64,000 bases of DNA from an uncultured Clostridia bacterium (GTDB lineage: Bacteria > Bacillota > Clostridia > Christensenellales > UBA1242), in the NCBI GenBank assembly GCA_937992055.1, contig CALKLQ010000041.1, positions 23,962 to 87,961 on the forward strand, read 5' to 3'. The position numbers were made by a program, and so were the translations under genes. This document shows, piece after piece, positions 10,771 to 25,079 of the stretch. The notes under the pieces are model-generated. The model did not search any database, was not told the origin of the DNA, and saw nothing but the letters and a program-made list of their open reading frames with translations. The first letter of the stretch is position 1, and each line of letters opens with the position of its first letter.

Positions 10771-11026
10771 ATTTCCTCATGTATTTAATAATTTTAAAGT
10801 AAGAACCAGTAAATTTTTTTATAATAAAAACTTTGCTAGTTTATTTAAATTTAAAAGTAATTTTACATTTTTTATAATATCATAAAAAGATAAAAATAAC
10901 AAACAAACATTCTACTTTCAAAATTAAAAATGTATATAAAAGTTTTTACGAGTTTTAAAGATAACCTTAAACAATTTACTTGACAAAGTAAACAAGTTAT
11001 AATAAACTATTATAGTTTAAATGTGC

Positions 11027-11065
11027 GGGCTGTTAGCTCAGTTGGTAGAGCAACTGACTCTTAAT
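11027..11065 (+). pseudogene. 5' half of a disrupted chromosomal tRNA-Lys(CUU); attL
   Basis: GGGCTGTTAGCTCAGTTGGTAGAGCAACTGACTCTTAAT ends in the anticodon loop and is followed by unrelated sequence. Joined to 23837..23873 it gives a perfect 76-nt cloverleaf ending in CCA. Confidence 0.9.
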
Positions 11066-11086: not shown

Positions 11087-11162
11087 GGGTCATTAGCTCA
11101 GTTGGCAGAGCACTTGACTCTTAATCAAGGTGTCCGGGGTTCGAGCCCCCGATGACCCACCA
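11087..11162 (+). tRNA. tRNA-Lys (anticodon CUU), element-borne complete copy
   Basis: 76 nt: acceptor GGGTCAT/ATGACCC, D arm TAGCTCAGTTGGCAGAGCA, anticodon arm CTTGA-CTCTTAA-TCAAG, T arm CGGGG-TTCGAGC-CCCCG, encoded CCA. The sequence differs from the disrupted host copy. Confidence 0.92.
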
Positions 11163-11165
11163 CTC

Positions 11166-11192
11166 AAACCCTTATAAAATAAGGGTTTTTTT
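11166..11192 (+). terminator. rho-independent terminator after the element tRNA-Lys
   Basis: AAACCCTTA-TAAAA-TAAGGGTTT followed by a T run. Confidence 0.75.
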
Positions 11193-11224
11193 AATGTGTT
11201 GCATAAAAAATTTTTTTGTTTTTT

Positions 11225-11324
11225 TGACCCTTATTTTACAACTTTTTACTAAAAAAAATTGCTAAAATTTAGACTTTTTTTCGACTACTTTTTTTCGACC
11301 TTTACAAGGGTCAAACAAGGGTCA
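11225..11324 (+). repeat. AAGGGTCA motif cluster (candidate integrase arm-type sites), attL side
   Basis: CAAGGGTCAAACAAGGGTCA at 11305-11324 overlaps the integrase stop codon. An inverted copy TGACCCTT lies at 11225-11232. The same 20-mer recurs at 23770-23789. Confidence 0.55.
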
Positions 11325-12332
11325 ATTTTGCAACTCTATATAATAATCATTATATAGCTTTTTAATTTTTTCTAAAATTTTTGTTTTATCTTCGTAAACA
11401 ACGATATTTGTATATATATCCATAGTGATTCCAATTTCAGAATGTCCCATGTTCATTTGAACTTGTTTTGCCGGAGTTCCTAAATAATATTGATTAGTAG
11501 CATAACTATGTCTAAGACAATGTAACGTTCCTGTAATATTCAACTCCGCAAGATAATCTTTGAACATGTGAGTAACGTAGCTTCCGTTATAGTTAAAAAT
11601 CTTTCCTTCTTTATAAATTAAATTTTTTAAATTTTCTGTTATTCTTATAAATCTATCGGCATTATCTGTTTTGGTTCCCTTTATATGGATAACATTATTG
11701 TTTTTAAAATCTTTGGAAGTCAATGTCAAAGCCTCACTCCTTCTCACTCCTGTTGCTAAATAGAAAAGTATTAGTTTGTAATGTTCATAGTTTGTTTGCT
11801 TTATTTTTGATAATAATTTTTCTTGCTCTTCTATTGTAAAAGCTTTTCTGACATTTTTGATTTTTTTATCTTTAACAACAAGCTTGAACGGGTTCTTTTT
11901 AATAAATTCCAAATCTTCAGCTTTTTGCAAACAGGCATTGAAATATGTAATAATAAGTTCCTTTGTTCTTGTTTTTGGAAGTTTATTTAAATATGGTTGT
12001 AAATTATTTATGGTTATCTCATCAAGATTGTAATTTCCAAAATTTTTAACTATGTAATTTTTTAATAAGCTTTGAATCTCTCTCCCCGTTTGTTCTGCGA
12101 CAAAAGGTTTTTTGTAATTGTCAAACCAAAAGTCCGCCCACGTTTTTAATTTATATATGCAATTCGTTGTTTTGTTCTTTTTTTCCTTCTGCTCTTTTTT
12201 TAGAGCTTTTATTTTTTCATCTCTTTTTTTAACCAGCTTTGACCTATCTTTTGAGTAAACTGAGTATTGTTTAGAATCAAAATAAAATCTAAGTTCAAAT
12301 CTGTTATCTTTTCTATATCTTATTGTAGACAT
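11322..12332 (-). CDS. int: tyrosine recombinase / phage integrase
   Basis: 336 aa. Catalytic blocks ATGVRRSEALTL (Arg), HCLRHSYATNQY (H-x-x-R) and GHSEIGITMDIYTNI (His...Tyr). AGGAGGAGG RBS. Sits beside the split tRNA. Confidence 0.92.
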   Translation of the reverse strand: MSTIRYRKDNRFELRFYFDSKQYSVYSKDRSKLVKKRDEKIKALKKEQKEKKNKTTNCIYKLKTWADFWFDNYKKPFVAEQTGREIQSLLKNYIVKNFGNYNLDEITINNLQPYLNKLPKTRTKELIITYFNACLQKAEDLEFIKKNPFKLVVKDKKIKNVRKAFTIEEQEKLLSKIKQTNYEHYKLILFYLATGVRRSEALTLTSKDFKNNNVIHIKGTKTDNADRFIRITENLKNLIYKEGKIFNYNGSYVTHMFKDYLAELNITGTLHCLRHSYATNQYYLGTPAKQVQMNMGHSEIGITMDIYTNIVVYEDKTKILEKIKKLYNDYYIELQN

Positions 12333-12540
12333 TTCCTCCTCCTTTATTATTTCAGAGTCGGAATTTCCTTTTATAAATGGGTTAGCCTCCCTAATTAACC
12401 TTGTAATTTGTGACCTTTTTCTTTCTTTTACTCCTTGTTTAAAGGCTAAAAATTCATTGCCACTTTTTAAAATATAATTATGAATGTTATTTGCTAATTG
12501 TTGAAAAATTTTTTAATTCTTCCATTATCTCTCTCATTTC

Positions 12541-12885
12541 TTAAATTTTCTTTAGTTTAAATGATTCACTTCTACCGCTTAAGCCTGACAAATAAATTTC
12601 GGCAGTATTTAATAAGTCTTCGTCTAATTGCAATATCATGTCGATACAATTTTTCTGTTGTTCAGTGTACTGCGTTTTAAAAGCTATTTCTTGTTTGACT
12701 TCATTGCCTATTAAATAATCAACAGACACATTAAAATAATTCGCAAGTTTTATAAGAGTTCTTATATCAGGTTCTCTTATGTTATTTTCCCATTTTGATA
12801 TAAGCGTTTGTTTGTATCCAGTAATTTTTGCAATATCTTTTTGTGTTTTTTTATTAATCTTTCGCAATTCTTTAATTTTTAACAT
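12541..12885 (-). CDS. XRE-family HTH regulator (cI-like repressor candidate)
   Basis: 114 aa. N-terminal HTH TQKDIAKITGYKQTLISKWENNIREPDIRTLIKLANYFNVSVDYLIG. Divergent from the + strand early genes. Confidence 0.8.
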   Translation of the reverse strand: MLKIKELRKINKKTQKDIAKITGYKQTLISKWENNIREPDIRTLIKLANYFNVSVDYLIGNEVKQEIAFKTQYTEQQKNCIDMILQLDEDLLNTAEIYLSGLSGRSESFKLKKI

Positions 12886-12951
12886 TTTTTCCTCCTTAAA
12901 ATTAACTTAACACTATTAGTAATAATTTTTTAATATTTTTAATAAAAATAG

Positions 12952-12996
12952 TTGACAAAACGGAATATTTTTCATATATTAATAATAAATATTCCT
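12952..12996 (+). promoter_or_regulatory. sigma-A-type promoter with candidate operator
   Basis: TTGACA (12952-12957), 17-nt spacer, TATATT (12975-12980). The perfect 9-bp inverted repeat GGAATATTT (12962-12970) / AAATATTCC (12988-12996) brackets the -10 box. Confidence 0.5.
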
Positions 12997-13044
12997 ATTA
13001 GGATTATCCTTAAGGTAATCATTAGGAATTTCAAGGAGGTAAAA

Positions 13045-13284
13045 ATGAAAACAACGATAAATAAAGATCAAGTTATTGAAGAGCTAAGAAAAGAAAATCA
13101 AACATTAAAAAATCGACTTGCTTTGATTGAAATAAAAAATGAACTTTCTATCGAAGACAAAATGCAAGCTATTAAGCAATATTTTGAATTTTGTTGTATC
13201 GATTCTACTACTAGCTTAAGAGCAGACGATTATACAAATATCATAACTTTTGAGAAATATTTAAAGGGAGAATTTGAAAAATGA
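13045..13284 (+). CDS. hypothetical protein (79 aa)
   Basis: ATG at 13045 follows AAGGAGG. The track ORF from 12952 begins upstream inside the promoter. Coiled-coil-like N-terminus. Confidence 0.5.
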   Translation: MKTTINKDQVIEELRKENQTLKNRLALIEIKNELSIEDKMQAIKQYFEFCCIDSTTSLRADDYTNIITFEKYLKGEFEK

Positions 13285-13454
13285 AAACAATGTACATTTT
13301 AAAAACAAGCACTTCAAAATTCGTATTTACAGATTTAGAAATGGCTATGAAAAAATTCTATGACTACGAAACTTTGGGACTTCCTGCGAAGGTTATTAAA
13401 TCTGAAGTAGGCTTATTAAATGAAAAACAAACAGTTCTTCACTGTTCTGTATAA
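13281..13454 (+). CDS. hypothetical protein (57 aa)
   Basis: Below the track size cut-off. ATGA start/stop overlap with the previous gene. Reads MKTMYILKTSTSKFVFTDLEMAMKKFYDYETLGLPAKVIKSEVGLLNEKQTVLHCSV. Confidence 0.4.
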   Translation: MKTMYILKTSTSKFVFTDLEMAMKKFYDYETLGLPAKVIKSEVGLLNEKQTVLHCSV

Positions 13455-13463
13455 GAGTAAATG
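13423..13463 (+). repeat. ~41-bp direct repeat, copy A
   Basis: AAAAACAAACAGTTCTTCACTGTTCTGTATAAGAGTAAATG, near-identical to 13845-13886. Contains the hairpin AACAGT/ACTGTT. Confidence 0.8.
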
Positions 13464-13484
13464 AAATTTAAGTAAATCTATAGT

Positions 13485-13724
13485 TTAAATTTTTAAACTC
13501 TTTAAAAGTTCTTTTCTTTTCTCTTCTGTATCTATTTCTAATAGTTCATCGGCGGAAATATCAAAAATAACAGACATTTTTCTAAGATTATCAAAATCTG
13601 GTTTTAACCTTCCCTTTTCCCATAAAGAAACTGTGTCTTGTGAAACATTAAATAGCTTTCCAAATTGAGTTTGATTGAGTTTATTTAAATTTCTATATTC
13701 TTTTATTATTTGATAATATTTCAT
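13485..13724 (-). CDS. XRE-family HTH regulator (small, Cro/cI-type)
   Basis: 79 aa. NQTQFGKLFNVSQDTVSLWEKGRLKPDFDNLRKMSVIFDISADELL is a canonical XRE HTH. Confidence 0.8.
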   Translation of the reverse strand: MKYYQIIKEYRNLNKLNQTQFGKLFNVSQDTVSLWEKGRLKPDFDNLRKMSVIFDISADELLEIDTEEKRKELLKSLKI

Positions 13725-13785
13725 GAATTAATTATATACTAAAGTTTTTGGTATTTAAAAATAACGAAAAATAGTCGTAAAATAA

Positions 13786-13814
13786 TTGACTTACGAATAT
13801 AATTAGTATATAAT
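13786..13814 (+). promoter_or_regulatory. near-consensus sigma-A promoter of the long + strand operon
   Basis: TTGACT (13786-13791), exactly 17 nt, TATAAT (13809-13814). About 300 nt upstream of the first ORF. Confidence 0.65.
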
Positions 13815-13844
13815 ACGAAGAAAGTTAGTAAATAACCACAAATA

Positions 13845-13886
13845 AAAAACAAACAGTGTTGCACTGTTCTGTATAAAGAGCGAATG
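13845..13886 (+). repeat. ~41-bp direct repeat, copy B
   Basis: AAAAACAAACAGTGTTGCACTGTTCTGTATAAAGAGCGAATG. Hairpin AACAGTG/CACTGTT. Lies just downstream of the promoter. Confidence 0.8.
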
Positions 13887-13975
13887 CAATAGGCAAAGGT
13901 ACTTTTCCCTTTCGCTCGTTCCTCCAAAAAAATTAAAGGTGGTGATGCCAGGACAATAAACAACATCAAATTATC

Positions 13976-14042
13976 ACTTTTCGAAACTAGGCTTTGCCTA
14001 GTCAATAGGAATTGACCGCCCTATTCTGATGAGATAGGTCAA
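13976..14042 (+). ncRNA. hammerhead ribozyme, type II topology (candidate)
   Basis: C(11.1)-GAA-A[CTAGGC-TTT-GCCTAG]T-C(17) | [AATAGG-AATTGACCGC-CCTATT]-CTGATGA-G(10.1). All invariant core nucleotides are in the correct order. GUC cleavage triplet with the scissile bond at 14003/14004. Stems I and III are capped and stem II forms from the flanks. Loop I TTGACC is complementary to GGTCAA at 14037-14042. Confidence 0.75.
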
Positions 14043-14118
14043 GCGCGCTTTAAGTTAGCCCACTTTAAAAAGGCAAAAAAAAACAAAAATTAAAATAAAA
14101 AAAAGAAGGTAAAGAAGA

Positions 14119-14415
14119 ATGAATGAATTTATGAGTAAAGGTATAGTCATTGGAAAACAAGAAAGTTATGAGTACGAAGGAAAAACATATTACAAACTTC
14201 CATTATTATTAGGTGTTCCTGATTCGGACGGCCATTTTACTGATAAAGCTGTTGTAGGTTCTGCTAAAGGACAAACTCCAATTTTAAAAGATGAAGAAAT
14301 ATATTTTGGGGCACCAATAATGTGCACAGTGAATGTTAAAACTTTTGATGGCAAAACAACTTATGTTTGCTCTGACGTTCAAATTCTAGAAAAAAAAACA
14401 AAAGTAGAAAAATAG
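14119..14415 (+). CDS. hypothetical protein (98 aa); ssDNA-binding role is only a positional guess
   Basis: First gene of the operon, with an AGAAGG RBS. Small and beta-rich-looking, no TM segment. No motif recognised. Confidence 0.5.
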   Translation: MNEFMSKGIVIGKQESYEYEGKTYYKLPLLLGVPDSDGHFTDKAVVGSAKGQTPILKDEEIYFGAPIMCTVNVKTFDGKTTYVCSDVQILEKKTKVEK

Positions 14416-14462
14416 ATTTGTCAACAATAGACAATCTACCATTTTAAAAAAAAGGAGAAAAA

Positions 14463-14681
14463 ATGGCATATAAAAATTCTAATGGTGATGAACAGTTTAC
14501 ATTAAAAGAGAAAATTGATTATCACAATTCTTGTGCTAACACGGGAAAAACACCTAGCGGTGAAAAACTTTCTTTTAGTGAAAGATATAATCACATGCAA
14601 GCTTCTGCTAGATGTCGTCGCAAATTAGGTACATTTATGAAAACGGTTAATGTTGTAAATTCAACTAATAAGAAAAAATAA
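14463..14681 (+). CDS. hypothetical protein (72 aa)
   Basis: AAGGAG RBS. Basic C-terminus, no TM segment. Confidence 0.5.
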   Translation: MAYKNSNGDEQFTLKEKIDYHNSCANTGKTPSGEKLSFSERYNHMQASARCRRKLGTFMKTVNVVNSTNKKK

Positions 14682-14832
14682 GTTAAAAATAATTTAATAA
14701 GCTGTAAGCCCTAGCCTACTGACTAGGCACAAAAATTGTAGCTTAAGCAATTTTTAAATTTAATAATTAAAATCGAAACTTAAACTAGCTGTGTTGTACT
14801 CATGGCTAGTTTTGTTTCTTAAAAGGAGAAAA

Positions 14833-16932
14833 ATGAAAAAAGTTTTTAAAATTTTGTTATGGATATTATTAATAATTTTTATTCTTTTTTTAATTGCTGA
14901 TTTGCTTTTTGTTATTAAAGAAAAATTAAATTGGAATTTTAGTTTTGGTGAAAATAAAACTTATGAAAAAGAAAAACTCGAAAATGGTTTAACAACGCAA
15001 ATAAATGGTGATTTAACAAAAGAAGAAATTGAAAAGGAAAAAAATGATATTGAAGCACCTTTGCATGATGATATTTTTAAAGATTTTTTAATTTGTGAAA
15101 CTGGCGATTATGTAATAATTTATCGTAAAGTAGAAACAAATGGAAAAATTATTTTTCCAAACTTGTCATTTATTAAAACTGCTAATAATTTACAATTTGA
15201 CGGAACTTTAGGCTTGACTGCTGAAATTGGGACTAATTGGTGGACTGGCGCTCATGATTTCAATAATATAAGGTTTACTTATGATTACTCAGGAAATTTT
15301 AATTATGATAAAAAAATGAGTTGGAATACTGATTGGAAAAATATTTTTGTTTTAGGAATTAAAGGTTTTTTGACTGATATAGGTTCGCAAGACAACTTTG
15401 TTTCATTTCGTAATTTTACTGAAAAATTTTGTAATAACTTTTGGAATATGAATGTTTTTGCTAAAATCGCAATGAATAAACAAAGTGAATTAAATAAACT
15501 ACATGATGTTACAAAAAAATATATCTATCAAAATATTTTGCCTTATTTTCAAAATCTTAATGATAATATTGAGTTTATTATGCCTGATAAAAATTTATCA
15601 ACAGATGTGCGTTTAAGTCAAATAATGAGCTTAACGAATTCATATGCTACATATCTTTGGAAAACAGTTAAAACATCAAATAAGTCAGAAAGTTTTAAAA
15701 ATGTTAATATTTCAAGTTTTTTTGCAAAATTTATTTATGACGAAAATATTTATAAACAATATCCAATACCAGAAAACAAAAAATCTGAATATCCGAATCA
15801 AGAATATTACAAAGTTTATAATTGTCAAATTTTTGCTTCGTGTAGCTATAAATATTTTGATATAGATTTGCCGGGTGAGCCGGTTGTTGATGATGATTAT
15901 GTAGTGGTTTTGCCTCCAGAAGATAATAAAGAATATTGTAAAGTTACAATCAAATTAAAAAATTCTAACTCTTCTGATTTAACTAATTTTATAATTAGTG
16001 AACAACCTGTAAAAATTTCAATTGCTGGTAAAGACCTTGTTTTTGATAGCTTAGAAAAATTAAATTATGGTTGCACTATTGCTTTAGAACAATCTAAGAC
16101 TTATTCCTATTCAATTTTAAGTAATGGTTTGATTTTTGAAAGTTATTCTGGAAATTTTTATATTCAAAATGAAAATTCAACAATTGTAAATTTTAATTAT
16201 ACTTATCAATACGGTTATGCTCTTTGTAAAATTATGCTTCATCCTGTTGGTGAAATTGATTTATCTCAAGTTGATTTGATTAATAACCCTGTAATTATTA
16301 ATTTGAAAAGTAAGGTTAATAACTATAATTATACCTTAACATTTAATTCTTTGGATAAATTTAATAATGGAATTAGCCAATTAATTCATTTAGGTGAATA
16401 TACTTATACGATTTCAAGTCAAGTTTTAAGTTTCTCTCCAGGCAATGGGGATATTAATGTTACAACAGAAAATAGATATTTTAATTTTACTTATACTCAA
16501 ATTACCTCATTTAATTTTTCTTTTAATTGTACAATTGACCAATTTGAGAAGGTACCAGCAGAAACAGATCCAATAAAAGAACATGAGTCTGTGTATTTAA
16601 AGGTTTGTGGACTTGACTTAAATTCTCAGTCTTCGTTTTCATTTTTGGAAAATGTTTTTGGCGAAAGCCTTACAATTTCTTTAATAGTTTTTAAAAACAC
16701 AACTCAAATTGTTTCTTATGGAACTTTTCTATTAGGAACAAACTTAAATGGAAATTGTTTCCGGTCTCTACCAAGTGGCTTTAAAACTTTGGAAAACGGC
16801 GAAACATATACTATTCAATTTATTTTTAATTCTGAAGTAAACACTGGTGTAAGTTATTCAAGTCCTCCAATAGAGTTTACTTATGCAACTTATAAAATTT
16901 CAAGGTTTAATATAACCTTGCAAGAAATTTAA
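14833..16932 (+). CDS. large N-terminally membrane-anchored Asn-rich surface protein
   Basis: The ATG at 14833 follows AAAGGAG, whereas the track start at 14791 is upstream of that RBS. Signal-anchor KILLWILLIIFILFLIADLLFVI, then about 670 aa with no recognised family. Confidence 0.7.
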   Translation: MKKVFKILLWILLIIFILFLIADLLFVIKEKLNWNFSFGENKTYEKEKLENGLTTQINGDLTKEEIEKEKNDIEAPLHDDIFKDFLICETGDYVIIYRKVETNGKIIFPNLSFIKTANNLQFDGTLGLTAEIGTNWWTGAHDFNNIRFTYDYSGNFNYDKKMSWNTDWKNIFVLGIKGFLTDIGSQDNFVSFRNFTEKFCNNFWNMNVFAKIAMNKQSELNKLHDVTKKYIYQNILPYFQNLNDNIEFIMPDKNLSTDVRLSQIMSLTNSYATYLWKTVKTSNKSESFKNVNISSFFAKFIYDENIYKQYPIPENKKSEYPNQEYYKVYNCQIFASCSYKYFDIDLPGEPVVDDDYVVVLPPEDNKEYCKVTIKLKNSNSSDLTNFIISEQPVKISIAGKDLVFDSLEKLNYGCTIALEQSKTYSYSILSNGLIFESYSGNFYIQNENSTIVNFNYTYQYGYALCKIMLHPVGEIDLSQVDLINNPVIINLKSKVNNYNYTLTFNSLDKFNNGISQLIHLGEYTYTISSQVLSFSPGNGDINVTTENRYFNFTYTQITSFNFSFNCTIDQFEKVPAETDPIKEHESVYLKVCGLDLNSQSSFSFLENVFGESLTISLIVFKNTTQIVSYGTFLLGTNLNGNCFRSLPSGFKTLENGETYTIQFIFNSEVNTGVSYSSPPIEFTYATYKISRFNITLQEI

Positions 16933-16956
16933 AAAAAAATAAAAGGAGATAAAAAA

Positions 16957-17190
16957 ATGGATAAAACAAAAATTATATGGACTTCAATATTTGGAGTTGT
17001 TGGAGTAATAGTCGCAACAATATTAATGTGGCTTTGCTTGTATTTAATCGTTCCAAACATAAAGGACGGAACTGATAAACTCTTCAAATGGAATGATTAC
17101 GCTGTGGAGCAAGAGCAAGACGATATCACAGAAACAACTCAAAACTCCCCTAATACTGAAAATATTGAAGTTATAACACCCGCAAATTGA
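16957..17190 (+). CDS. small membrane protein (77 aa)
   Basis: AAGGAG RBS. One long hydrophobic segment IIWTSIFGVVGVIVATILMWLCLYLIV and an acidic C-terminal tail. Confidence 0.6.
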   Translation: MDKTKIIWTSIFGVVGVIVATILMWLCLYLIVPNIKDGTDKLFKWNDYAVEQEQDDITETTQNSPNTENIEVITPAN

Positions 17191-17198
17191 GGTGTTAT

Positions 17199-18770
17199 AT
17201 GAAAAGAAATATTATTTTAATTAGTTGCTCAATTTTAATATTGGCAACAATGGTTTATGGAATTTACATTAAAAATCAAGAAAAAATAAATACTGATTTA
17301 ACAATGCAAAACAACACTTTGATTTTGCAAATAGACTCGACTGTTGATAGATTAAATAAACTACAAGAAGACTATGACCTACTTAAGCAAACTCATGAGA
17401 GCACACTTGCTCAGTTAGATAAAGAACGTAGACAATTTGACTTTGACAGACAAAGATTTACTGAACAAGTGGAAAACTTGAGAGGTCAAGTTTTGGAATT
17501 ATCATTAAACAAAATAGAAAATGAAGAGAGAATAGCAGAACTAGAAGCTGAAATAGAAGACTTAAACCAACAAATAGCAAATTTAGATGCTCAAATTTTA
17601 GCTTTAGAAACTGAAAATGCCGGACTACTTTCAAGTGTTAATAATTATGAAACTCAGATTTCAAACTTGAATGGTCAAATTGACGATATGGTCGCAGAGT
17701 TCAATGCCAAAAATGAACTTTGGCAAAAACTAATTAATGGAACTATTACAGAAATTACCGCAGAAGACCTTGAAGGTGTGACTGAAATTAGACCATATGC
17801 TTTTTACGATTGTCAAACTCTTAGGTCTATAGAATTTTCTAATACAATTACAAAAATTGGTTCGAGTGCATTTTATCAATGTAGTCTTTTGTCTTCAATA
17901 GAAATTCCTGATAATGTAACAACTATTGGGGCTAATGCTTTTTTAAATTGTTTTAATCTTTCCTCAATTAAACTTTCTGATAATCTATCAAATATTCCTA
18001 ATAGTGCTTTCGCAGGTTGTAATAAACTTACTTCAATTGCAATTCCTGATAGTGTTTCAAGTATTAGTTATGAAGCTTTTCAATCTTGTTCGAAATTAAA
18101 CTCTGTTACTTTTGGTGATAATAGCGAACTTACTCAAATTGGTGCTTATGCTTTTCGTTCTTGCGGTAATTTAAATAATGTTATTCTTCCAGTTGCCCTG
18201 ACAAGTATAGGAAACGGTGCTTTTTCGAAATGTTCAAGCTTATCAACAATTAATATTCCAAATAGCGTAACAACTATTGACGCTAATGTTTTTTCTGAAT
18301 GTACCAGTTTGACGTCAATTAAACTTCCTAATAATATAACAAAAATTAGTAGTAATCTTTTTGGAAAGTGTAGTGGTTTGACTTCTATAGAAATTCCTAA
18401 TAATGTGACGATTATTGAAACTGATTCTTTTCAATATTGTACAAATTTATCATCAATAAATATTCCAAATACTGTTACATCTATTGGTCTTCGTGCATTT
18501 TATTATTGTTCTAGCCTTATTTCAATTGAAATTCCTGATAGTGTTGCAAGTATGGATGGACATATATTTTTTGGTTGTTCAAATGAGCTATCAATTATAA
18601 TGAAACGTTCGACTCCTCCTACATGTGCTAATGTTTTATATGGTTTCTATGGAAAAGTCTATGTTCCAGATTCGGCTTTAGAAAGTTATAAAACATCTCC
18701 TGGTTGGTCAGATAAAGCTTCAATAATTTATTCAGTCAGTGAATACGAGGCATTGCAAGAAGTAGCATGA
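17199..18770 (+). CDS. membrane-anchored coiled-coil + BspA-type leucine-rich-repeat protein
   Basis: ATG at 17199 follows GAGG. N-terminal anchor, then a ~150 aa heptad-rich segment (LELSLNKIENEERIAELEAEIEDLNQQIANLDAQILALETEN). About 12 repeats follow of I-x-I-P-x-x-V-T-x-I-G-x-x-A-F-x-x-C-x-x-L-x-S, the LRR_5/BspA type. Confidence 0.8.
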   Translation: MKRNIILISCSILILATMVYGIYIKNQEKINTDLTMQNNTLILQIDSTVDRLNKLQEDYDLLKQTHESTLAQLDKERRQFDFDRQRFTEQVENLRGQVLELSLNKIENEERIAELEAEIEDLNQQIANLDAQILALETENAGLLSSVNNYETQISNLNGQIDDMVAEFNAKNELWQKLINGTITEITAEDLEGVTEIRPYAFYDCQTLRSIEFSNTITKIGSSAFYQCSLLSSIEIPDNVTTIGANAFLNCFNLSSIKLSDNLSNIPNSAFAGCNKLTSIAIPDSVSSISYEAFQSCSKLNSVTFGDNSELTQIGAYAFRSCGNLNNVILPVALTSIGNGAFSKCSSLSTINIPNSVTTIDANVFSECTSLTSIKLPNNITKISSNLFGKCSGLTSIEIPNNVTIIETDSFQYCTNLSSINIPNTVTSIGLRAFYYCSSLISIEIPDSVASMDGHIFFGCSNELSIIMKRSTPPTCANVLYGFYGKVYVPDSALESYKTSPGWSDKASIIYSVSEYEALQEVA

Positions 18771-19612
18771 AAAACAAAGTAACAACTATTACATACTCAG
18801 ATTACGTTAAATATTTAACTGCCAAGCCATATGGAATAAATATTATATTTGGCCAAAAGGGCTCCGGTAAAACGGCATTAAACACTGTCTTTGGACTTTG
18901 GGAAATGGCAATGAGACAACGATACTTACAATGCTTATCTGAGATTGAGCTTTTAAAAGAGGAAAGGGTGCGTGAGTACTCTTCCCCTCCTCAAGCTCAC
19001 TGCGTTTTTACAAGTCCTAACTATTCCATAGTAGACAACTGGAAATTTGGAAGAGGCAAGAAAACATCATATTCATATAACCCCTATCATTTCAATATTC
19101 CAAACATGCGTATTGAGTATGATATTTATCCACCATATTCAACTTTCCATTGCATGGAAGCCCAAGCACCTTTAAATTCCAGGCAATCAAAGAACTTCCC
19201 TTCCGAAACCTCTAGAGCCTATGAAAATGAACGTCATCCAAACTATTTGATTTGGCTAGACTGCCAAAGGTTAGGCTTGGTCGATTTAAACGTTAGAGAA
19301 ATAACGGACTGGTTCATAACTCCAATTGCCCTGGAGCATAAATATAATTCTCTCAATGTAATGACTGGAACAATCTTTCATACCCTTTGCTTTGACAGCC
19401 TTTTAAAAGCAGAAAGATATGTTGAAACTGAGGATATTTTTCTAGGCAAACTTGTAGATTTCGTTTTCGAAGGCGGTTGCGTTTTTAATTGCTACTCCTC
19501 TTTTGGTAATAAAAAAATCTTTTTTGAAACTGATAAAGACTTTGAATACGTTAGCAGTCAAGACCCAAATTCTGCCTCGCTTTTAGCACCAAAAAATTAT
19601 TATAAAGGATAA
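18767..19612 (+). CDS. Zot/pI-like P-loop NTPase (candidate morphogenesis ATPase)
   Basis: 281 aa. Walker A GQKGSGKTA. FHCMEAQ and ERHPNYLIWLDCQ align by eye with the DEAQ and HRHxGxD-hhh-TQ blocks of the Zot family. ATGA overlap with the upstream gene. Confidence 0.6.
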   Translation: MKNKVTTITYSDYVKYLTAKPYGINIIFGQKGSGKTALNTVFGLWEMAMRQRYLQCLSEIELLKEERVREYSSPPQAHCVFTSPNYSIVDNWKFGRGKKTSYSYNPYHFNIPNMRIEYDIYPPYSTFHCMEAQAPLNSRQSKNFPSETSRAYENERHPNYLIWLDCQRLGLVDLNVREITDWFITPIALEHKYNSLNVMTGTIFHTLCFDSLLKAERYVETEDIFLGKLVDFVFEGGCVFNCYSSFGNKKIFFETDKDFEYVSSQDPNSASLLAPKNYYKG

Positions 19613-19617
19613 GAACT

Positions 19618-20085
19618 ATGATACTTAAATTTGAAAGTTTAGAAGAATTAAATAACTACTATTATGACCAACTTAACACCCTCGCCTTTAATTCTCAAAA
19701 TTTTAATAATGCTATCACTTCAATGTTCGAGAAAAACATTTTAAAAGCTTACAAGGCTTCATTTTTGGAACTGACCGCAGACGATAACTTTATCTCAAAA
19801 TATAATTTGAAAAAAGTTAAATACCTACGCAAGCAATTCATTTTAAAATACAAGCTCGAAAAGAAAAAGTTTAAAGCAATATTAAAATTAAGCTCCAAGA
19901 AAGAAAAACGTAAATTAAGAGCATTTATTAAACAGTCTAAAAAACAGGCAAAACAAAAACTTAAAGTAGAGCGAAAAGAAAAACGTCAAATCTTCTTTTC
20001 AAACCTCAAACAAAAACGCAAAGCTCGTTGGGCTAAGTTTATTCAAATCTTTAAAAGGAAAAAACATGAGAAAAAAACAAAATAA
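19618..20085 (+). CDS. hypothetical Lys/Arg-rich protein (155 aa)
   Basis: The C-terminal 90 aa are mostly K/R (KKKFKAILKLSSKKEKRKLRAFIKQSKKQAKQKLKVERKEKRQ...). Confidence 0.55.
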   Translation: MILKFESLEELNNYYYDQLNTLAFNSQNFNNAITSMFEKNILKAYKASFLELTADDNFISKYNLKKVKYLRKQFILKYKLEKKKFKAILKLSSKKEKRKLRAFIKQSKKQAKQKLKVERKEKRQIFFSNLKQKRKARWAKFIQIFKRKKHEKKTK

Positions 20086-20413
20086 AAAACGATTTGCTAA
20101 AAATGAATTTCGTTATAATTATTATACTAAACATGAAAATTTTATTTTTGAAGAAGATGGTGATAATTTTCATTCTTTGGGGTTGACCCATAATAAGCAA
20201 ACAAAAGATAAAAATAAAAAATGGCATAAGAATATGCCATTAAATAAAAACCCTCAAAAGAATAAAACTGAAACATCTTATTTAAGATATGGAGTTATAA
20301 CTCAAAATAAAAAAACTTTTTCAAATAAACCTGATAAGCGCTTTGTTTTTGATGATAGTGATAAAGCAAGTGTAAAGTCAAAAATTAGAAATTATAAAAA
20401 AAAGAGAAAATAA
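20066..20413 (+). CDS. hypothetical Lys-rich protein (115 aa)
   Basis: Overlaps the previous gene by 20 nt. Basic at both termini. Confidence 0.5.
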   Translation: MRKKQNKKRFAKNEFRYNYYTKHENFIFEEDGDNFHSLGLTHNKQTKDKNKKWHKNMPLNKNPQKNKTETSYLRYGVITQNKKTFSNKPDKRFVFDDSDKASVKSKIRNYKKKRK

Positions 20414-20417
20414 AAAA

Positions 20418-20474
20418 ACAAATACTTTTCTGCTTGGGTTACCCCATAGAAGCATAGCTTCTTTAAGTATTTGT
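20418..20474 (+). other. two-tier stem-loop between the structural block and rep
   Basis: ACAAATACTT (20418-20427) pairs with AAGTATTTGT (20465-20474) and encloses the hairpin AGAAGC-ATA-GCTTCT (20448-20462). Confidence 0.5.
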
Positions 20475-20538
20475 TGTAATTATTATATTCTATTTAACTA
20501 AAATTTGTCAACATTTTTTTATAAAAAAAGGAAAAGTG

Positions 20539-21507
20539 ATGAAATACATAGATTTTCTTTTAAAAAAGAGATATTCAAGAAACGTTGTTATTCCTGCTTT
20601 AAAGAAGTTGGGTTTTGAAAATAAAGCCCAAAAACTTGAAGAATGTGGGAATTTTAAACGTTTAGCTGTTTGTAAAAAATGCGGTTGTATTCATTATAAC
20701 GGTGCAAATTCATGCAAAGACCGCTTTTGTCCTGTCTGCCAAAAGAAAAGAGCTTTACTTTGGATATTAAAAGTCTACCCTATTTTTGAAGATTTAATAA
20801 GCCGGGGGTATATAGTCAATTTCATAACTTTGACAGTTCCAGACGGTGACAATTTAAAAGAACGCTTGAATATTTTAAATAATTCTTTTAGATACATGCT
20901 TCATGAAAATTCAAAATCAAGATATTCTTTTAACAATATATATTTGGGTGGAATTCGTTCGCTAGAAGTTAAAAAAGGCAGATTCTCTAATCTTTGGCAT
21001 CCCCACCTTCATATGCTTGTCGTAAAAAAAATAAAGACAGATTTTAGAGAAGATAGAAAACTTTTAACTGAAGCTTGGGCAAATGCCTTAACAAAAACAA
21101 CTGGTATTTATCATTCACCGCAAAAGGTAATTATAGACATTAAAAGTTTGTATCTTGTAGACAAAATAACGGGTCAAAAAAAATACTCTAAATTTGCTAT
21201 TCTAAAGGCTTGTTTGGAAGTCTTTAAATATTTAGTGAAATCAAATTTTGAAGAACTAGCATGTAAAGAACTTATAAAAACCATGTCTAGTATTCGCGGA
21301 ATTAACCCTTGGGGAAACGTCCGCTATCTTCTCCACGACAAAAATATTGAATTAACTATTGAACATGAATTAGACATGTCAGAAAATGAACTAAGTGATA
21401 AAGTCTGTGCAATATGCGGAAACGATGATTTTATTCAAATTAAAAATGTTGGCGTGTATGGTCAAAAAATTTATGATTTAAAAAATAAAAAAACGGAGGT
21501 AAACTGA
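20539..21507 (+). CDS. rep: rolling-circle replication initiator, pC194/Rep_1 (HUH) family
   Basis: Cys cluster CKKCGCIHYNGANSCKDRFCPVCQKKRALLW, HUH motif WHPHLHMLVV and catalytic Tyr motif LEVFKYLVKS. The ATG at 20539 lies one codon inside the track GTG start. Confidence 0.88.
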   Translation: MKYIDFLLKKRYSRNVVIPALKKLGFENKAQKLEECGNFKRLAVCKKCGCIHYNGANSCKDRFCPVCQKKRALLWILKVYPIFEDLISRGYIVNFITLTVPDGDNLKERLNILNNSFRYMLHENSKSRYSFNNIYLGGIRSLEVKKGRFSNLWHPHLHMLVVKKIKTDFREDRKLLTEAWANALTKTTGIYHSPQKVIIDIKSLYLVDKITGQKKYSKFAILKACLEVFKYLVKSNFEELACKELIKTMSSIRGINPWGNVRYLLHDKNIELTIEHELDMSENELSDKVCAICGNDDFIQIKNVGVYGQKIYDLKNKKTEVN

Positions 21508-21508
21508 A

Positions 21509-21874
21509 ATGGCAAAATATATTGAACAATATAAAGCGGAAATTCAAGCATATGAGAGTGCTAAAATAAAAGCTGAAAATGCGGTTTTTAAATATGCGGT
21601 AATTACCCGCATGCTTTTTAATCGTTTGAAATTTATGGTGTCAAAAATCGATGATTGCAAATCTACCCTATTTTTAAAAATTAAAGAAAGTGGTTTGTAT
21701 GAAAACTTTGATGATGAAATAAATGATGTAATTTTTAGAATAGATTATTTGAGAGAAACTTTAAAAGGTGTAATTGATTCGGAAATAGGAAAAGACATAA
21801 TAAAATTAATAGATACTCCTGCCTTTAATCATAAGATAAATAAATTAAAGGAGATTATAGATAATGAAGTCTGA
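21509..21874 (+). CDS. hypothetical protein (121 aa)
   Basis: Starts 1 nt after the rep stop. Helical-looking, no family recognised. Confidence 0.5.
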   Translation: MAKYIEQYKAEIQAYESAKIKAENAVFKYAVITRMLFNRLKFMVSKIDDCKSTLFLKIKESGLYENFDDEINDVIFRIDYLRETLKGVIDSEIGKDIIKLIDTPAFNHKINKLKEIIDNEV

Positions 21875-22718
21875 ACAAGATTCTATAACTAGAAACACCC
21901 TTATAACTTTATTTAATTCTTTTGATGAGGATATCTCTTCAGAAGAAACAATTTCTTCTTTTGAAGAAGAGAAAAAACGTGTACAAGGTTGTCTTCGAAT
22001 GATACAATCAAATTTTGTTCGTCTTGGTTGGCATTTGAAGAAACTAAAAGAGGAATTTAAAGATAATATAACAAAAACATATTTTGAAGCTAGAGGTCAT
22101 TATTGTCGTAACATCTACGATTTTGCCCAACAAGAATTTAATTTGAGCAAATCTTCTGTTAAGAGATTAATTGCAATTGTAGATAAATTTTGTTTAAAAA
22201 ATGATATTGAACTAGTAGAATTAAAAGAAGAATTTAAGCCTTATTCATATTCTCAACTTTCTGAGATGTTGCCACTAAATAATGAACAGCTTTCAAAGGT
22301 TAATTCTGCTATGTCAAAAAGAGAAATAAGAGCTTTAGGGAAAAGTGGCCCGCCGGCGGGCCAAAAAATACAAAGTGAGGAAAATAGCGGTATTCAGCGA
22401 TTTTACAAGTTAAAAAATAAGGATATTCGCTTAAATTTTTTAAAAAACTATCGCAAATGGACCTTAAAAGCAAAGGTTGAAAATCTAAGCTTATACATCT
22501 ATTCTTGCCCACTTTCAAATGGAGATTTAATGTTAATGTTTGAAACAAGATATTTTAATTCAAGTTATGGTAAGGAAGCAGTTTCAAAACTTTTAACTTT
22601 CCAGCGAAAGCAAGATAACTGTATATGCTTGTTTGACACATCTCAAAGTGATTTTTTGCAAAAAATGATAAATCTAGACGTAGGCATTGACCCTGACGTT
22701 GTTTTATCTGATGACTAA
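21864..22718 (+). CDS. hypothetical protein (284 aa)
   Basis: Overlaps the upstream gene by 11 nt. Contains the GC palindrome at 22347-22362. No family recognised. Confidence 0.55.
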   Translation: MKSEQDSITRNTLITLFNSFDEDISSEETISSFEEEKKRVQGCLRMIQSNFVRLGWHLKKLKEEFKDNITKTYFEARGHYCRNIYDFAQQEFNLSKSSVKRLIAIVDKFCLKNDIELVELKEEFKPYSYSQLSEMLPLNNEQLSKVNSAMSKREIRALGKSGPPAGQKIQSEENSGIQRFYKLKNKDIRLNFLKNYRKWTLKAKVENLSLYIYSCPLSNGDLMLMFETRYFNSSYGKEAVSKLLTFQRKQDNCICLFDTSQSDFLQKMINLDVGIDPDVVLSDD

Positions 22719-22727
22719 TAATAAAAA

Positions 22728-22758
22728 CTCATGCAAAAACTTGTATGAGGCTTTTTTT
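22728..22758 (+). terminator. rho-independent terminator of the long operon
   Basis: CTCATGCAA-AAAC-TTGTATGAG (9-bp stem with one G.U) followed by GCTTTTTTT. Confidence 0.75.
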
Positions 22759-22874
22759 AATCGCATAACCTCTCCCCTGGGGTTTCGCAAATATTTTTCT
22801 TTATTAGCCCAAAAAGCATGCAAACAAATGAGAACACAGTCAAATGGACTTCGAAGGCGTGTTCGGGCTTATCT

Positions 22875-23105
22875 CGGCAAACATTAAAAAGCGCGGAGTT
22901 TGAGGTGCGAAACCTCAAGAGGGAATAAGTTTTTCTCGGTAAAACTACTCAAAGCTAAAATGAGCAAATTTGCTTATTCGTGAATGTTTGCCGCTGATTA
23001 ATTAATAACGGCGCTAGCCTATTTAGAAAAAAAAGAAAAGCAGGAGAAACGGGAAAGCTTTGCGCCGTTTCCCTGCTTTTCTCCTATTGGGTTTGCTTGC
23101 AAACC
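22875..23105 (+). other. G+C-enriched multi-hairpin non-coding region (single-strand-origin-like)
   Basis: 11-bp long-range pairing CGGCAAACATT (22875-22885) / AATGTTTGCCG (22983-22993) encloses the hairpin TTGAGGT/ACCTCAA. An ~18-bp hairpin spans 23034-23052 / 23065-23082. A GGGTTTGC/GCAAACCC hairpin spans 23088-23105. Confidence 0.4.
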
Positions 23106-23510
23106 CTTTTAACTTGATACTATAGAAACAAATGGGGCAAAAATATTGAAAATTGACCATTTTTTAAAACCTGCAAATCGCTACAACCCGCAAAAAATAA
23201 GGCATTGAGGCACTTTTAAAGAAAATCAAAAAATGAAATTTTTACATCAGTGTAGTGCAAACCCGCTGAAAATAAGGGATTGAGGCCCCTCAAACCTCAA
23301 AAAAATCACTCGTCACGAGATAAAATCACTCGCCTCAAGTGATTTTTTGGTCTATTTTTACCTATCCCAAAATGGCTGAAAGCCTTATATTTTCTAGCAA
23401 AAACGCACTTCCGCAATTCTCAAAATCACAAAAATTCAATTTTTGTTGATTTTTGTTAATTTTCTGTAAAAACCAACCTTTTGATAGTTTATGTTTAAAT
23501 TTGACTATAA

Positions 23511-23562
23511 AAATACAATATATGGTATAACTTGATATATATAAATACTATATATTGTATTT
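23511..23562 (+). promoter_or_regulatory. candidate double-strand origin (dso): hairpin with CTTGATA nick motif in the loop
   Basis: 17-bp stem 23511-23527 / 23546-23562 (one G.T). The 18-nt loop TAACTTGATATATATAAA carries AACTTGATA, the pC194/phiX174-type nick sequence. A second AACTTGATA lies at 23111-23119. Confidence 0.6.
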
Positions 23563-23769
23563 ATTAAGCTTTTATACCAAGTTTAAAACTATTTTCCATA
23601 ATATTAATAAAATAAAAAGGCTAAGTCATTGACCTAGCCTTTAAAGTATCAATAGCCTAATGACGATGCTAACACATAGCATTTACCTAGATAATGGCGT
23701 TTATATTAGGACTTACTTTGATACTCAATATTATCATATGCAAAAATCTTTGTCAATATAATTATATTT

Positions 23770-23789
23770 CAAGGGTCAAACAAGGGTCA
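23770..23789 (+). repeat. AAGGGTCA tandem motif (candidate integrase arm-type site), attR side
   Basis: CAAGGGTCAAACAAGGGTCA, identical to 11305-11324. Confidence 0.55.
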
Positions 23790-23826
23790 GGACTCTCAAT
23801 GCCTTATAAATAAAGGTATAAATTTC

Positions 23827-23873
23827 GACTCTTAATCAGTGGGTCCGGGGTTCGAGTCCCCGACAGCCCACCA
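23827..23873 (+). pseudogene. 3' half of tRNA-Lys(CUU), copy 1; attR of the 12.8 kb element
   Basis: GACTCTTAATCAGTGGGTCCGGGGTTCGAGTCCCCGACAGCCCACCA. Completes the 5' half at 11027-11065. Confidence 0.9.
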
Positions 23874-23876
23874 CTC

Positions 23877-23902
23877 AAACCCTTATTTTATAAGGGTTTT
23901 TT
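23877..23902 (+). terminator. terminator after tRNA 3' half copy 1
   Basis: AAACCCTTA-TTTTA-TAAGGGTTT plus a T run. Same stem as the terminator at 11166-11192, with the loop inverted. Confidence 0.7.
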
Positions 23903-24135
23903 ATAACATAAAACTGAACATATAAAATGCCCAGCATGTTAAATATAATTTTTTCTTCTTTTAAATAGTTTTAATACAACTAAATAGATTGTTTATTAAC
24001 GGGAATTAAATTTTTCCCTCTACTTATATAGGGAGTAGTAATACACTAAACCTAGTTTTAGTTAGATATTTAAGGGAGTGTAGAGATTTGTAAGAACAAA
24101 TTTTTATTTGAAATTTAATAGTTTTATAATTTTAT

Positions 24136-24162
24136 ATAAAAAAACCTGCAATTTTGCAGGTT
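24136..24162 (-). terminator. rho-independent terminator for 24192..24716
   Basis: Minus strand reads AACCTGCA-AAAT-TGCAGGTT followed by TTTTTTT. Confidence 0.7.
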
Positions 24163-24191
24163 AATTTTTATTAAATTGAAGGTTCATCATC

Positions 24192-24716
24192 TTATCTTGA
24201 CATTCCATCTAAAATTTCGTCTTCTTTTTGTTTTTGAGTTATGTAGCTTTTATCATTAAAAATTTTTTCAAAATCTTTTAACTGTTTTATTGATACTTTA
24301 TTTTTGTCACCAATTAGTTTTTTTACAATATTATTTTTTATAATAAGATTATCAATAAACCAAAAACCCGAAATAAATTCTTCTAAAGTTTTCGCTTCAT
24401 AATTATCTATTCTAGTTTTTGCGAGTGCATAATCGTAGTAACCGTTCCAACCATTAGCGTCATAGCTATAATCATTTTTAGCAAGTTCTTCTTCTTCATC
24501 TTCTTTTGTTACTGCATTAGTAGTTATAGTGTTATTAGAAACATAATATGCTTTTCTTGGTTTATTAGGACTTACAATTGCAATATTATATTGTAATATG
24601 TCCATCATTTCCTCATCACCATCTCTATCAATGACAGGTTCTTCTCCAACTTTTGTTAGAACAACATAAACATTATCTAAATTTACTAATGTTTCATCAT
24701 TAAATTTATTTACCAT
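24192..24716 (-). CDS. hypothetical acidic protein (174 aa)
   Basis: The ATG at 24716 follows AAGGAG, whereas the track start at 24737 is upstream of that RBS. No family recognised. Confidence 0.55.
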   Translation of the reverse strand: MVNKFNDETLVNLDNVYVVLTKVGEEPVIDRDGDEEMMDILQYNIAIVSPNKPRKAYYVSNNTITTNAVTKEDEEEELAKNDYSYDANGWNGYYDYALAKTRIDNYEAKTLEEFISGFWFIDNLIIKNNIVKKLIGDKNKVSIKQLKDFEKIFNDKSYITQKQKEDEILDGMSR

Positions 24717-24950
24717 ATTAATACTCCTTATTAACAATAATATAACATTTAAACTTCGTCATGTCAATAGGGGTGAAAGATTAATTTTATTATATGCACT
24801 TAATCTTTCCTAATAAAAACAAAATTTTCTAATAATACTAAGAAAACTTGAACGATTTTTATACTATATAACACGAGTTTTGTGAGTGATATAAGAGGTT
24901 TTAAGGGCTTTGATAACACGAAAAACACTATCAAAAACTTTTATTTTGCT

Positions 24951-24995
24951 TCTCTTAATCAGTGGGTCCGGGGTTCGAGTCCCCGACAGCCCACC
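24951..24995 (+). pseudogene. 3' half of tRNA-Lys(CUU), copy 2 (orphan)
   Basis: CTCTTAATCAGTGGGTCCGGGGTTCGAGTCCCCGACAGCCCACCA, identical to 23829-23873. Followed by its own terminator AAACTAGG-TAAT-CCTAGTTTTTTT. Confidence 0.9.
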
Positions 24996-25079
24996 ACAAA
25001 ACTAGGTAATCCTAGTTTTTTTAATATAAAAAAAGCCCATAAGAGCTTTTTATTTAATTTATGTTTTAAAAATTTAATG

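Follow-up and report, generated by a model that had tools for sequence, protein, structure and literature searches.

Introduction

Bacterial type II hammerhead ribozymes commonly have a stem II as short as two base pairs (bp). In their consensus, loop I also forms a pseudoknot with the part of the 3' tail that comes right after stem II, and in the majority of members this pseudoknot spans at least 4 bp (PMC3088659). Many bacterial hammerheads lie near integrases in prophages, sometimes flanking genes (PMC3088659), and their cuts have been suggested to process polycistronic phage-type transcripts into parts that differ in stability or translation (PMC3088659, PMC6765202). Here we describe a candidate of this class in a 64,000-nucleotide (nt) stretch of contig CALKLQ010000041.1 from an uncultured Clostridia bacterium. 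This whole 64-kilobase (kb) stretch is called the window below, and coordinates refer to it unless a locus handle precedes them. The candidate lies at 13979-14043 on the + strand, inside a small tRNA-integrated element and upstream of its long operon. We consider it probable, with good but not complete confidence, that this is a genuine type II hammerhead, from the phage-associated subfamily whose pseudoknot with loop I follows directly on a short stem II.

The closest described system is the type II class itself, Rfam family RF02276, with which the candidate shares an identical core (CUGAUGA, GAA, A15.1-U16.1, C17 and G10.1-C11.1), capped stems I and III, a short open stem II, a loop I-to-tail pseudoknot and an integrase nearby in a prophage-like element. 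It departs from the RF02276 consensus by its AT-rich stems, by a shorter stem I with a larger loop, and by a U/U at the third position of stem II.

Two further comparisons are useful. The glmS ribozyme likewise cleaves in cis within the 5' untranslated region of mRNAs of Gram-positive bacteria; it leaves a 5'-hydroxyl (5'-OH) on the coding part and so alters the fate of that part, as is predicted here; it differs in having another fold and in depending on a ligand, and no ligand or switch is evident for the window motif. In work of 2007, Collins et al. reportedly saw RNase J1 degrade the 5'-OH product of the glmS ribozyme in Bacillus 5' untranslated regions. Twister, pistol, hatchet and twister-sister ribozymes are said to share gene neighbourhoods with bacterial hammerheads, a picture credited to Weinberg et al. 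in 2015. These four classes resemble the window motif in their phage-like intercistronic context, and the role suggested for them is again the processing of polycistronic transcripts (PMC6765202). Rfam searches for the four found no match in the window or in the alternative modules of the sister elements described below.

Results

Architecture of the candidate ribozyme

Read directly on the + strand, positions 13976-14042 are ACTTTTC, GAA, ACTAGGC-TTT-GCCTAGT, C, AATAGG-AATTGACCGC-CCTATT, CTGATGA and GATAGGT-CAA. The features of the motif are as follows.

13979-14043, + strand: probable type II hammerhead ribozyme, whole, 65 bases (RF02276 match)
13978-14045, + strand: match of covariance model R1 (below) to the type II hammerhead
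13979-13982, + strand: 5' strand of stem II (11.4-11.1), sequence read
13982, + strand: C11.1, sequence read
13983-13985, + strand: core G12-A13-A14, aligned with the GAA of RF02276 and R1
13986-14002, + strand: stem III hairpin ACUAGGC-UUU-GCCUAGU (A15.1 to U16.1), 7 Watson-Crick pairs
14003, + strand: C17, with the predicted scissile bond C14003/A14004 (core alignment with RF02276 and R1)
14004-14025, + strand: stem I hairpin AAUAGG-(AAUUGACCGC)-CCUAUU, 6 bp with a 10-nt loop
14012-14017, + strand: pseudoknot strand in loop I (UUGACC), exact complement of 14037-14042
14026-14032, + strand: core C3-U4-G5-A6-U7-G8-A9 (CUGAUGA), sequence read and RF02276 and R1 alignments
14033, + strand: G10.1, sequence read
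14033-14036, + strand: 3' strand of stem II (G10.1, A, U, A), sequence read
14037-14042, + strand: pseudoknot strand in the 3' tail (GGUCAA), beginning 3 nt after G10.1

The invariant core positions (C3 U4 G5 A6 N7 G8 A9, G12 A13 A14 and H17) are all present and in order. The topology is that of type II: the order runs 11.x-GAA-hairpin III-C17-hairpin I-CUGAUGA-10.x, with stems I and III capped by loops and stem II open. Stem III joins 13986-13992 to 13996-14002 around loop III (13993-13995), and stem I joins 14004-14009 to 14020-14025. Stem II has the pairs C13982-G14033, U13981-A14034 and U13979-A14036, with a mismatch at U13980/U14035, and could be extended to 13976 should the pseudoknot stay unformed. 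The pseudoknot itself consists of six Watson-Crick pairs between 14012-14017 and 14037-14042. Directly beside the core, the pairs are standard in all three stems: G14033-C13982 (10.1-11.1), A14004-U14025 (1.1-2.1) and A13986-U14002 (15.1-16.1). Perreault et al. 2011 (PMC3088659) required such core-adjacent pairing before they accepted a candidate.

The initial annotation had proposed a complete type II hammerhead with a loop I/3'-tail pseudoknot at this place. Its positions for the core, the stems, C17, G10.1, the U/U mismatch and the loop I complement are all correct on the direct read, and the ribozyme and pseudoknot as a whole are supported by the covariance models and by the published descriptor. 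Judged from sequence, the locus appears to have each sequence and structural trait of a type II hammerhead except a score above the Rfam threshold, and its context is typical.

Descriptor searches and chance expectation

A type II descriptor written for this analysis returned the motif as its sole compact match when both strands of the window, and of some 180 kb of DNA from elsewhere, were searched. In 3000 shuffles of the AT-rich window, the same descriptor gave 0.29 matches per window with stems of at least 3,3,3, and 0.005 when the stems had to reach 5,5,4; those of the motif measure 7,6,6. The published RNAMotif descriptor for type II (Perreault et al. 2011, Text S1; PMC3088659) was re-implemented as well. 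The motif passes it exactly at the limiting score of 13, and in 2000 shuffled windows it gave one match (0.0005 per window) and none with a 6-bp pseudoknot.

These rates bear on the idea of a chance look-alike, in which two ordinary leader hairpins are flanked by bases that happen to spell the core, with neither ribozyme ancestry nor activity. The loose rate of 0.29 per AT-rich 64-kb window speaks for it, as do the sub-threshold Rfam score and the possibility that the motif was picked from very many screened windows; the rate falls to 0.005, however, already at stems of 5,5,4, and to 0.0005 with the published descriptor. The evidence from related sequences is taken up below.

Rfam covariance search

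The initial annotation had proposed a search with the Rfam type II covariance model. On the 87 nt of 13966-14052, RF02276 (Hammerhead_II) gave a full-length match (model positions 1-66 of 66) with E 1.8e-4, at 28.4 bits against a cut-off of 37. In an equally narrow search, the second allele of the motif, carried by element copy L053, reached 31.1 bits (E 3.4e-5). Comparable Rfam searches of neighbouring non-hammerhead RNA from sister elements returned noise of 6-17 bits only. The alignment to RF02276 loses score in three places: stem I of the consensus is longer and its loop small, the model counts G10.1 as inserted, and U13980 and U14035 are mismatched.

Rfam yielded no hammerhead over the whole 64-kb window at gathering level, nor in the 301 nt of 13850-14150 at E <=10, because of the speed filters and the threshold; the 87-nt search did match. 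Since the longer searches missed a 28-bit hammerhead, their negatives are unreliable for short ribozymes.

Comparison with viral hammerheads

We scanned IMG/VR with the pattern CGAAAC-N(12-16)-GTCA-N(18-24)-TCTGATGAG, derived from the core of the candidate, and more than 120 stretches of viral contigs matched it. Among the matches listed (n=129), stems I and III both reach 4 bp or more in 123, and four are hammerheads with shorter stems; just two are without the fold. The dimensions of the 123 are set beside those of the window in the lines below, all counts being among the matches listed.

Stem I length: 6 bp in 39 and 8 bp in 41, the two most common values; window 6 bp
Loop I length: 10 nt in 28, the most common value; window 10 nt
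Stem III length: 7 bp in 52, the most common value; window 7 bp
Loop III length: 4 nt in 85 and 3 nt in 19; window 3 nt, second allele 4 nt
Stem II length: 3 bp in 68 and 2 bp in 34; window 2 bp, then U/U
Pseudoknot length: 4 bp or longer in 94/123; window 6 bp
Offset of the pseudoknot start from G10.1: 3 nt in 46, the most common value; window the same

A covariance model with stems I-III modelled, R1, was trained on 95 distinct viral sequences, the window excluded. Over the whole window with filters off, it scores 13978-14045 at 52.5 bits (E 4.6e-12), part of which is circular because the training sequences were chosen with a pattern taken from the candidate, so that 19 positions match by construction; the runner-up has 10.7 bits. 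Two stemless pattern matches, used as controls, score 27.4 and 15.3 bits, and the window stands 25-37 bits higher. About 25-37 bits of its score are therefore due to the helices and to family-typical loops and tail. Outside the pattern, R1 detects about 80 more hammerheads in viral loci, at 27-61 bits, and the window score lies within this family range.

Covariation was assessed in an alignment of 147 distinct sequences, with the window and L053 included. In the columns of the stems and of the window's pseudoknot, standard pairs fill 86.6% of cells, versus 56.6% in shuffles. The covariation score is 0.71; shuffles give 0.18, and shifting the partners by 1-3 columns gives no more than 0.14. Changes on both sides are seen at all six pseudoknot pairs, and this covariation is independent of the alignment method because the covariance model leaves the pseudoknot unmodelled. 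The window itself pairs at 15 of the 17 model pairs and at all 6 pseudoknot pairs (6/6).

Individual relatives come close to the window. The hammerhead at L102:11285-11351 has an identical stem I (AAUAGG/CCUAUU) and a pseudoknot altered on both strands, UUGGC:GCCAA versus UUGACC:GGUCAA in the window, and that at L137:3718-3787 has an identical stem III (ACUAGGC/GCCUAGU). Both belong to a set of IMG/VR hammerheads, with for example L069:7545-7613 and L078:3464-3530, that have the window's 6-bp stem I, 10-nt loop I and 7-bp stem III. As in the window, GA(U/C)A is then followed by the pseudoknot. A chance look-alike would have to account for a 6-bp pseudoknot in the exact family register, for an R1 score 25-37 bits above pattern-only controls, for a stem I equal to that of L102 and a stem III equal to that of L137 with pseudoknots differing in a compensatory way, and for a position in a non-coding stretch, on the sense strand, of an integrase-bearing element. 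We hold it to be very improbable.

The viral relatives sit between co-directional genes, that of L102 just before a gene for a Gp2.5-like single-stranded DNA-binding protein. These IMG/VR contigs often carry several hammerheads (6-10 in some), placed 10-30 nt from the next start codon, whereas the window has a single copy, 115 nt upstream of an open reading frame (ORF) and within a longer structured leader. The carriers differ as well: that of the window is a small element with Rep_1 and an integrase, not a recognisable tailed phage. Among the IMG/VR contigs, L067, L058, L162, L141 and L132 have 6-10 type II hammerheads each by R1, which agrees with the published gene-flanking picture.

Copies in the element's own lineage and in sister elements

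The hammerhead is found in six copies of the element as two alleles: the window is identical to L026, L027 and L028, and the other allele is held by L008 and L053. Between alleles, loop III alone is changed (UUU in the window, AAAA in L008 and L053), against about 8 differences in the 154 nt of flanking leader. Variation in loop III only, beside diverged flanks, is consistent with a constraint on the fold.

The element family is rare: the only assemblies in which we saw it are a few from Logan and ENA, derived from human gut and other samples. No relatives of the element were found in phage GenBank records, GTDB representative genomes or JGI metagenomes, and IMG/VR, queried with two proteins and two leader patterns, returned chance matches only.

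Sister elements carry other RNA in the hammerhead slot. In L004:2525-2745, L023:2107-2345 and L024:3775-4035 it is occupied by a structured non-coding region of about 220-260 nt, with several hairpins whose loops are conserved (UUUCUnGGGGAAnCUU, GUGCGCAA) and a possible pseudoknot of GGGGA with GUCCCC; RNAalifold on the three sequences gives 39 pairs, 8 of them with compensatory changes. A distinct two-hairpin module of about 95 nt takes the hammerhead's place in L001:3703-3790 and L006:1810-1900, between conserved flanks (5' AAAAACAAACAGTG..., 3' AAGCGCGCTnnAAGTTAG); its hairpin TAGGG.../...CCCTA aligns with stem I of the window. Neither this module nor the L004 region (type B), both inspected by eye, could be assigned to pistol, twister, hatchet or another known ribozyme, narrow Rfam searches giving only noise. 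At L053:430-500, the hammerhead leader is joined to another downstream gene, of 109 amino acids (aa) versus the 98-aa protein of the window, and divergence begins right after hairpin GCCCACTTTAAAAAGGC and an A-run, a putative recombination breakpoint in the leader.

Folding and counter-evidence

Minimum free energy (MFE) folds of the leader contain a helix that competes for the outer part of stem II.

13935-13981, + strand: predicted long-range helix (AAAGGUGGUGAU with AUCACUUUU; strands 13935-13946 with 13970-13981), directly 5' of the ribozyme and overlapping the outer 5' strand of stem II

Several results, besides the circularity in R1, weigh against the hammerhead assignment. Both Rfam scores, 28.4 bits for the window and 31.1 for L053, are under the 37-bit gathering cut-off. 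Stem II has only two Watson-Crick pairs before the U/U mismatch. The element's own lineage (six copies, two alleles) provides no compensatory change, the alleles being near-identical; no pairs are broken in it. Sister elements L001-L007, L009 and L023-L025 have no hammerhead anywhere by R1, and the ribozyme is therefore not essential to the element family. Finally, pseudoknot-free nearest-neighbour folding favours the helices GUCAAU/AUUGAC and CCUAU/AUAGG together with the upstream helix: a leader with the hammerhead enforced lies 9.2 kcal/mol above the MFE, before a pseudoknot term of about -6.4 kcal/mol, and in the leader ensemble the pair probability is 0.6-0.9 for stem III and about 0 for stems I and II.

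The initial annotation had named a below-threshold covariance score, combined with a lack of covariation in homologous elements, as grounds for giving up the motif. Taken literally, both were found. We judge the rule too strict, because the score is far above noise for its search space and the wider family covaries in the same columns.

Some of these results would suit a hammerhead descendant that is catalytically weak or trapped, either a relic or a structure serving some use other than cleavage. Most transcripts would then stay uncut owing to the competing helices, the AT-rich stems and the U/U of stem II. Its case includes the short stem II, the near-zero probabilities of stems I and II in folds that use the alternative helices, the Rfam score under the cut-off and sister elements that manage without the ribozyme. 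Against this, all core bases are intact in six copies, with variation confined to loop III, and the folding model leaves out the pseudoknot and tertiary contacts. The gap from hammerhead fold to MFE is, moreover, equal or larger in many family members: at 6.4 kcal/mol, the window has the 15th largest of 147, and such gaps are common. Type II hammerheads with a stem II of 1-2 bp and a 6-bp pseudoknot, too, are known to cleave fast (PMC3088659). On balance, we find a weak or trapped descendant rather unlikely, and retain the genuine type II hammerhead. A bistable switch built on the competing helices was considered and dropped: the energy gap is usual for the family, and no switch is therefore claimed.

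The host element and its leader

The hammerhead lies within a 12.7-kb element bounded by attachment (att)-like repeats that correspond to the 3' part of tRNA-Lys. Its principal features are these.

11116-23902, no strand assigned: host element, 12.7 kb, between the tRNA-Lys att-like repeat 11116-11191 and its copy 23827-23902
11322-12332, - strand: tyrosine integrase
12541-12885, - strand: XRE regulator
13485-13724, - strand: small XRE regulator, 79 aa
13786-13814, + strand: sigma-70-type promoter-like site TTGACT-17-TATAAT, 11/12 consensus positions; predicted leader start about 180 nt before the cleavage site
14119-14415, + strand: first ORF, 98 aa, of no known family, starting 115 nt after the predicted cleavage site
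18767-19612: conserved P-loop protein, 281 aa, with a GQKGSGKT motif
20536-21507: Rep_1 rolling-circle replication protein

The host is an uncultured low-GC Clostridia bacterium from the human gut, whose closest metagenome-assembled genome has 90% protein identity; further relatives are labelled Christensenella or Catabacter. Within the element, the hammerhead occupies a non-coding stretch on the sense strand, with co-directional ORFs on both sides. A long + strand operon runs from 14119 to about 22718 and encodes mostly proteins without known families. The initial annotation had spoken of a morphogenesis/replication operon; the recognisable proteins of the element are only the integrase, the XRE regulators, a BspA-type leucine-rich repeat protein, the P-loop protein and Rep_1. 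For the P-loop protein, AlphaFold gave a confidence score (pLDDT) of 33 and a PDB profile search returned Walker-A noise only; lenient Pfam searches added nothing.

Other parts of the earlier description hold up: the promoter and the first ORF, said to begin 115 nt downstream, are located at 13786-13814 and 14119, and the prophage-like context is borne out by the integrase, as type II hammerheads cluster near integrases and in prophages (PMC3088659). The site had also been called a 5' leader, which suits the window strain but not all variants. A 422-bp cassette, made of the small XRE gene and the promoter, is bounded by a 37-nt direct repeat (13418-13454 and 13840-13876, 89% identical). Strain variant L027 is devoid of this cassette and retains one repeat copy, so the hammerhead slot is there intercistronic in a longer transcript, and the arrangement in sister elements is likewise. 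The cassette is thus a presence/absence polymorphism of a regulator plus a promoter. On the minus strand, each repeat copy (about 13425-13450 and 13851-13869) has a terminator-like hairpin followed by a T-run; the first would end the minus-strand XRE gene, and the second faces the leader.

Further up the leader, a conserved hairpin at 13878-13925, with equivalents in L001, L006, L004, L023 and L024, carries the motif (A/G)AUAG in its loop, and CCUCC comes after the hairpin. Compensatory changes distinguish the outer stems of different lineages (GAGCGA/UCGCUC versus GGGGAC/GUCCCC). The leader segment 13851-13913 was also tried as an HTH-XRE RNA (RF02923) and rejected as noise, at 13.6 bits and E 6.8 against a gathering score of 49.8.

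At the right end of the element, 22720-23830 is a 1.1-kb non-coding region, GC-richer and hairpin-dense, with CTTGATA Rep_1-type nick motifs at 23113, just after the GC-rich hairpin GGGTTTGC/GCAAACCC, and at 23531. It is likely the region of the Rep_1 double-strand origin and single-strand origin. This location matters for one more reading of the hammerhead locus, as DNA-level hairpins: a single-strand origin, packaging signal or protein-binding site of a rolling-circle element, for which the RNA fold would be irrelevant. The element does encode a Rep_1 rolling-circle protein, its leader is hairpin-rich throughout, and a AAGCGCGCTT palindrome abuts the motif. The likely origin, however, is elsewhere, at 22720-23830 with a nick motif beside a GC-rich hairpin, and a DNA-level role leaves unexplained both the 13 conserved single-stranded core bases in hammerhead order and the pseudoknot in family register. 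We give this explanation hardly any weight and keep to the hammerhead.

Three observations concern the rest of the window. The intervals 11024-11065, 11087-11162, 23827-23902 and 24950-25025 hold tRNA sequence: besides an intact tRNA-Lys(CUU), a tRNA 5' half is present at 11024-11065. The acceptor strand of this half, GGGCTGT, is matched by ACAGCCC in the 3' halves that recur at 23827 and 24950, which suggests successive integrations at the tRNA, with a 1.1-kb remnant at 23903-25025. A transfer-messenger RNA (tmRNA) gene lies at 54003-54354 on the - strand (163.6 bits, tag peptide ANNNYGAVAA) and is an ordinary host gene. Immediately upstream of it is a 151-aa ORF (54344-54799, - strand), likewise ordinary.

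Discussion

We propose the following course of events at the hammerhead. Transcription would start from the promoter at 13786-13814 or, in strains without the cassette, further upstream. Stems III and I would fold as hairpins, C13982-G14033 and U13981-A14034 would close stem II, and the UUGACC:GGUCAA pairing would keep stems I and II parallel. The 2'-OH of C14003 would then attack the adjacent phosphate, so that the RNA would be cut between C14003 and A14004. Hammerhead cleavage leaves a 2',3'-cyclic phosphate on the upstream product and a 5'-OH on the downstream one. Here, the upstream product, ending in the cyclic phosphate, would be about 180 nt long when made from the cassette promoter and would otherwise comprise the whole early transcript; it would carry the structured leader or the early cistrons. 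The downstream product would be the operon mRNA with a 5'-hydroxyl; its first base would be engaged in stem I, and the first start codon would follow 115 nt later.

Such a cut may serve to uncouple the long operon mRNA from its upstream part, and the two could then differ in stability or translation. Granted an active ribozyme, transcript processing as its role is in our estimate close to an even call, or slightly short of one. The initial annotation had suggested an effect on mRNA stability; such an effect may exist, and the 5'-OH may either stabilise or destabilise the mRNA.

The other RNAs of the sister elements invite a bolder idea, namely that interchangeable structured RNA modules fill the position that separates the early genes from the main operon, and that all of them would cut the transcript there. 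We regard this as improbable and offer it as speculation. If it were true, at least one of the two non-hammerhead modules would belong to an undescribed class of RNA that either cleaves itself or recruits an RNase for processing.

The window hammerhead is a well-supported, ordinary new example of a ribozyme kind already known to be common in phage-like DNA, and it leaves knowledge of the class itself unchanged. It adds a confident hammerhead overlooked by automated Rfam annotation, because it scores too low for the gathering cut-off and the speed filters discard it when long sequences are searched. It also places a single type II hammerhead at a defined point, where the regulatory genes give way to the main operon, in a small, otherwise uncharacterised tRNA-integrated Rep_1 element from uncultured gut Clostridia. 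What bacterial hammerheads are for, the processing of polycistronic RNA or the control of stability or translation, is the question to which such an element speaks: because strain variants have or lack the internal promoter, and sisters have or lack the ribozyme, the family offers a compact natural setting in which to test bacterial hammerhead function.

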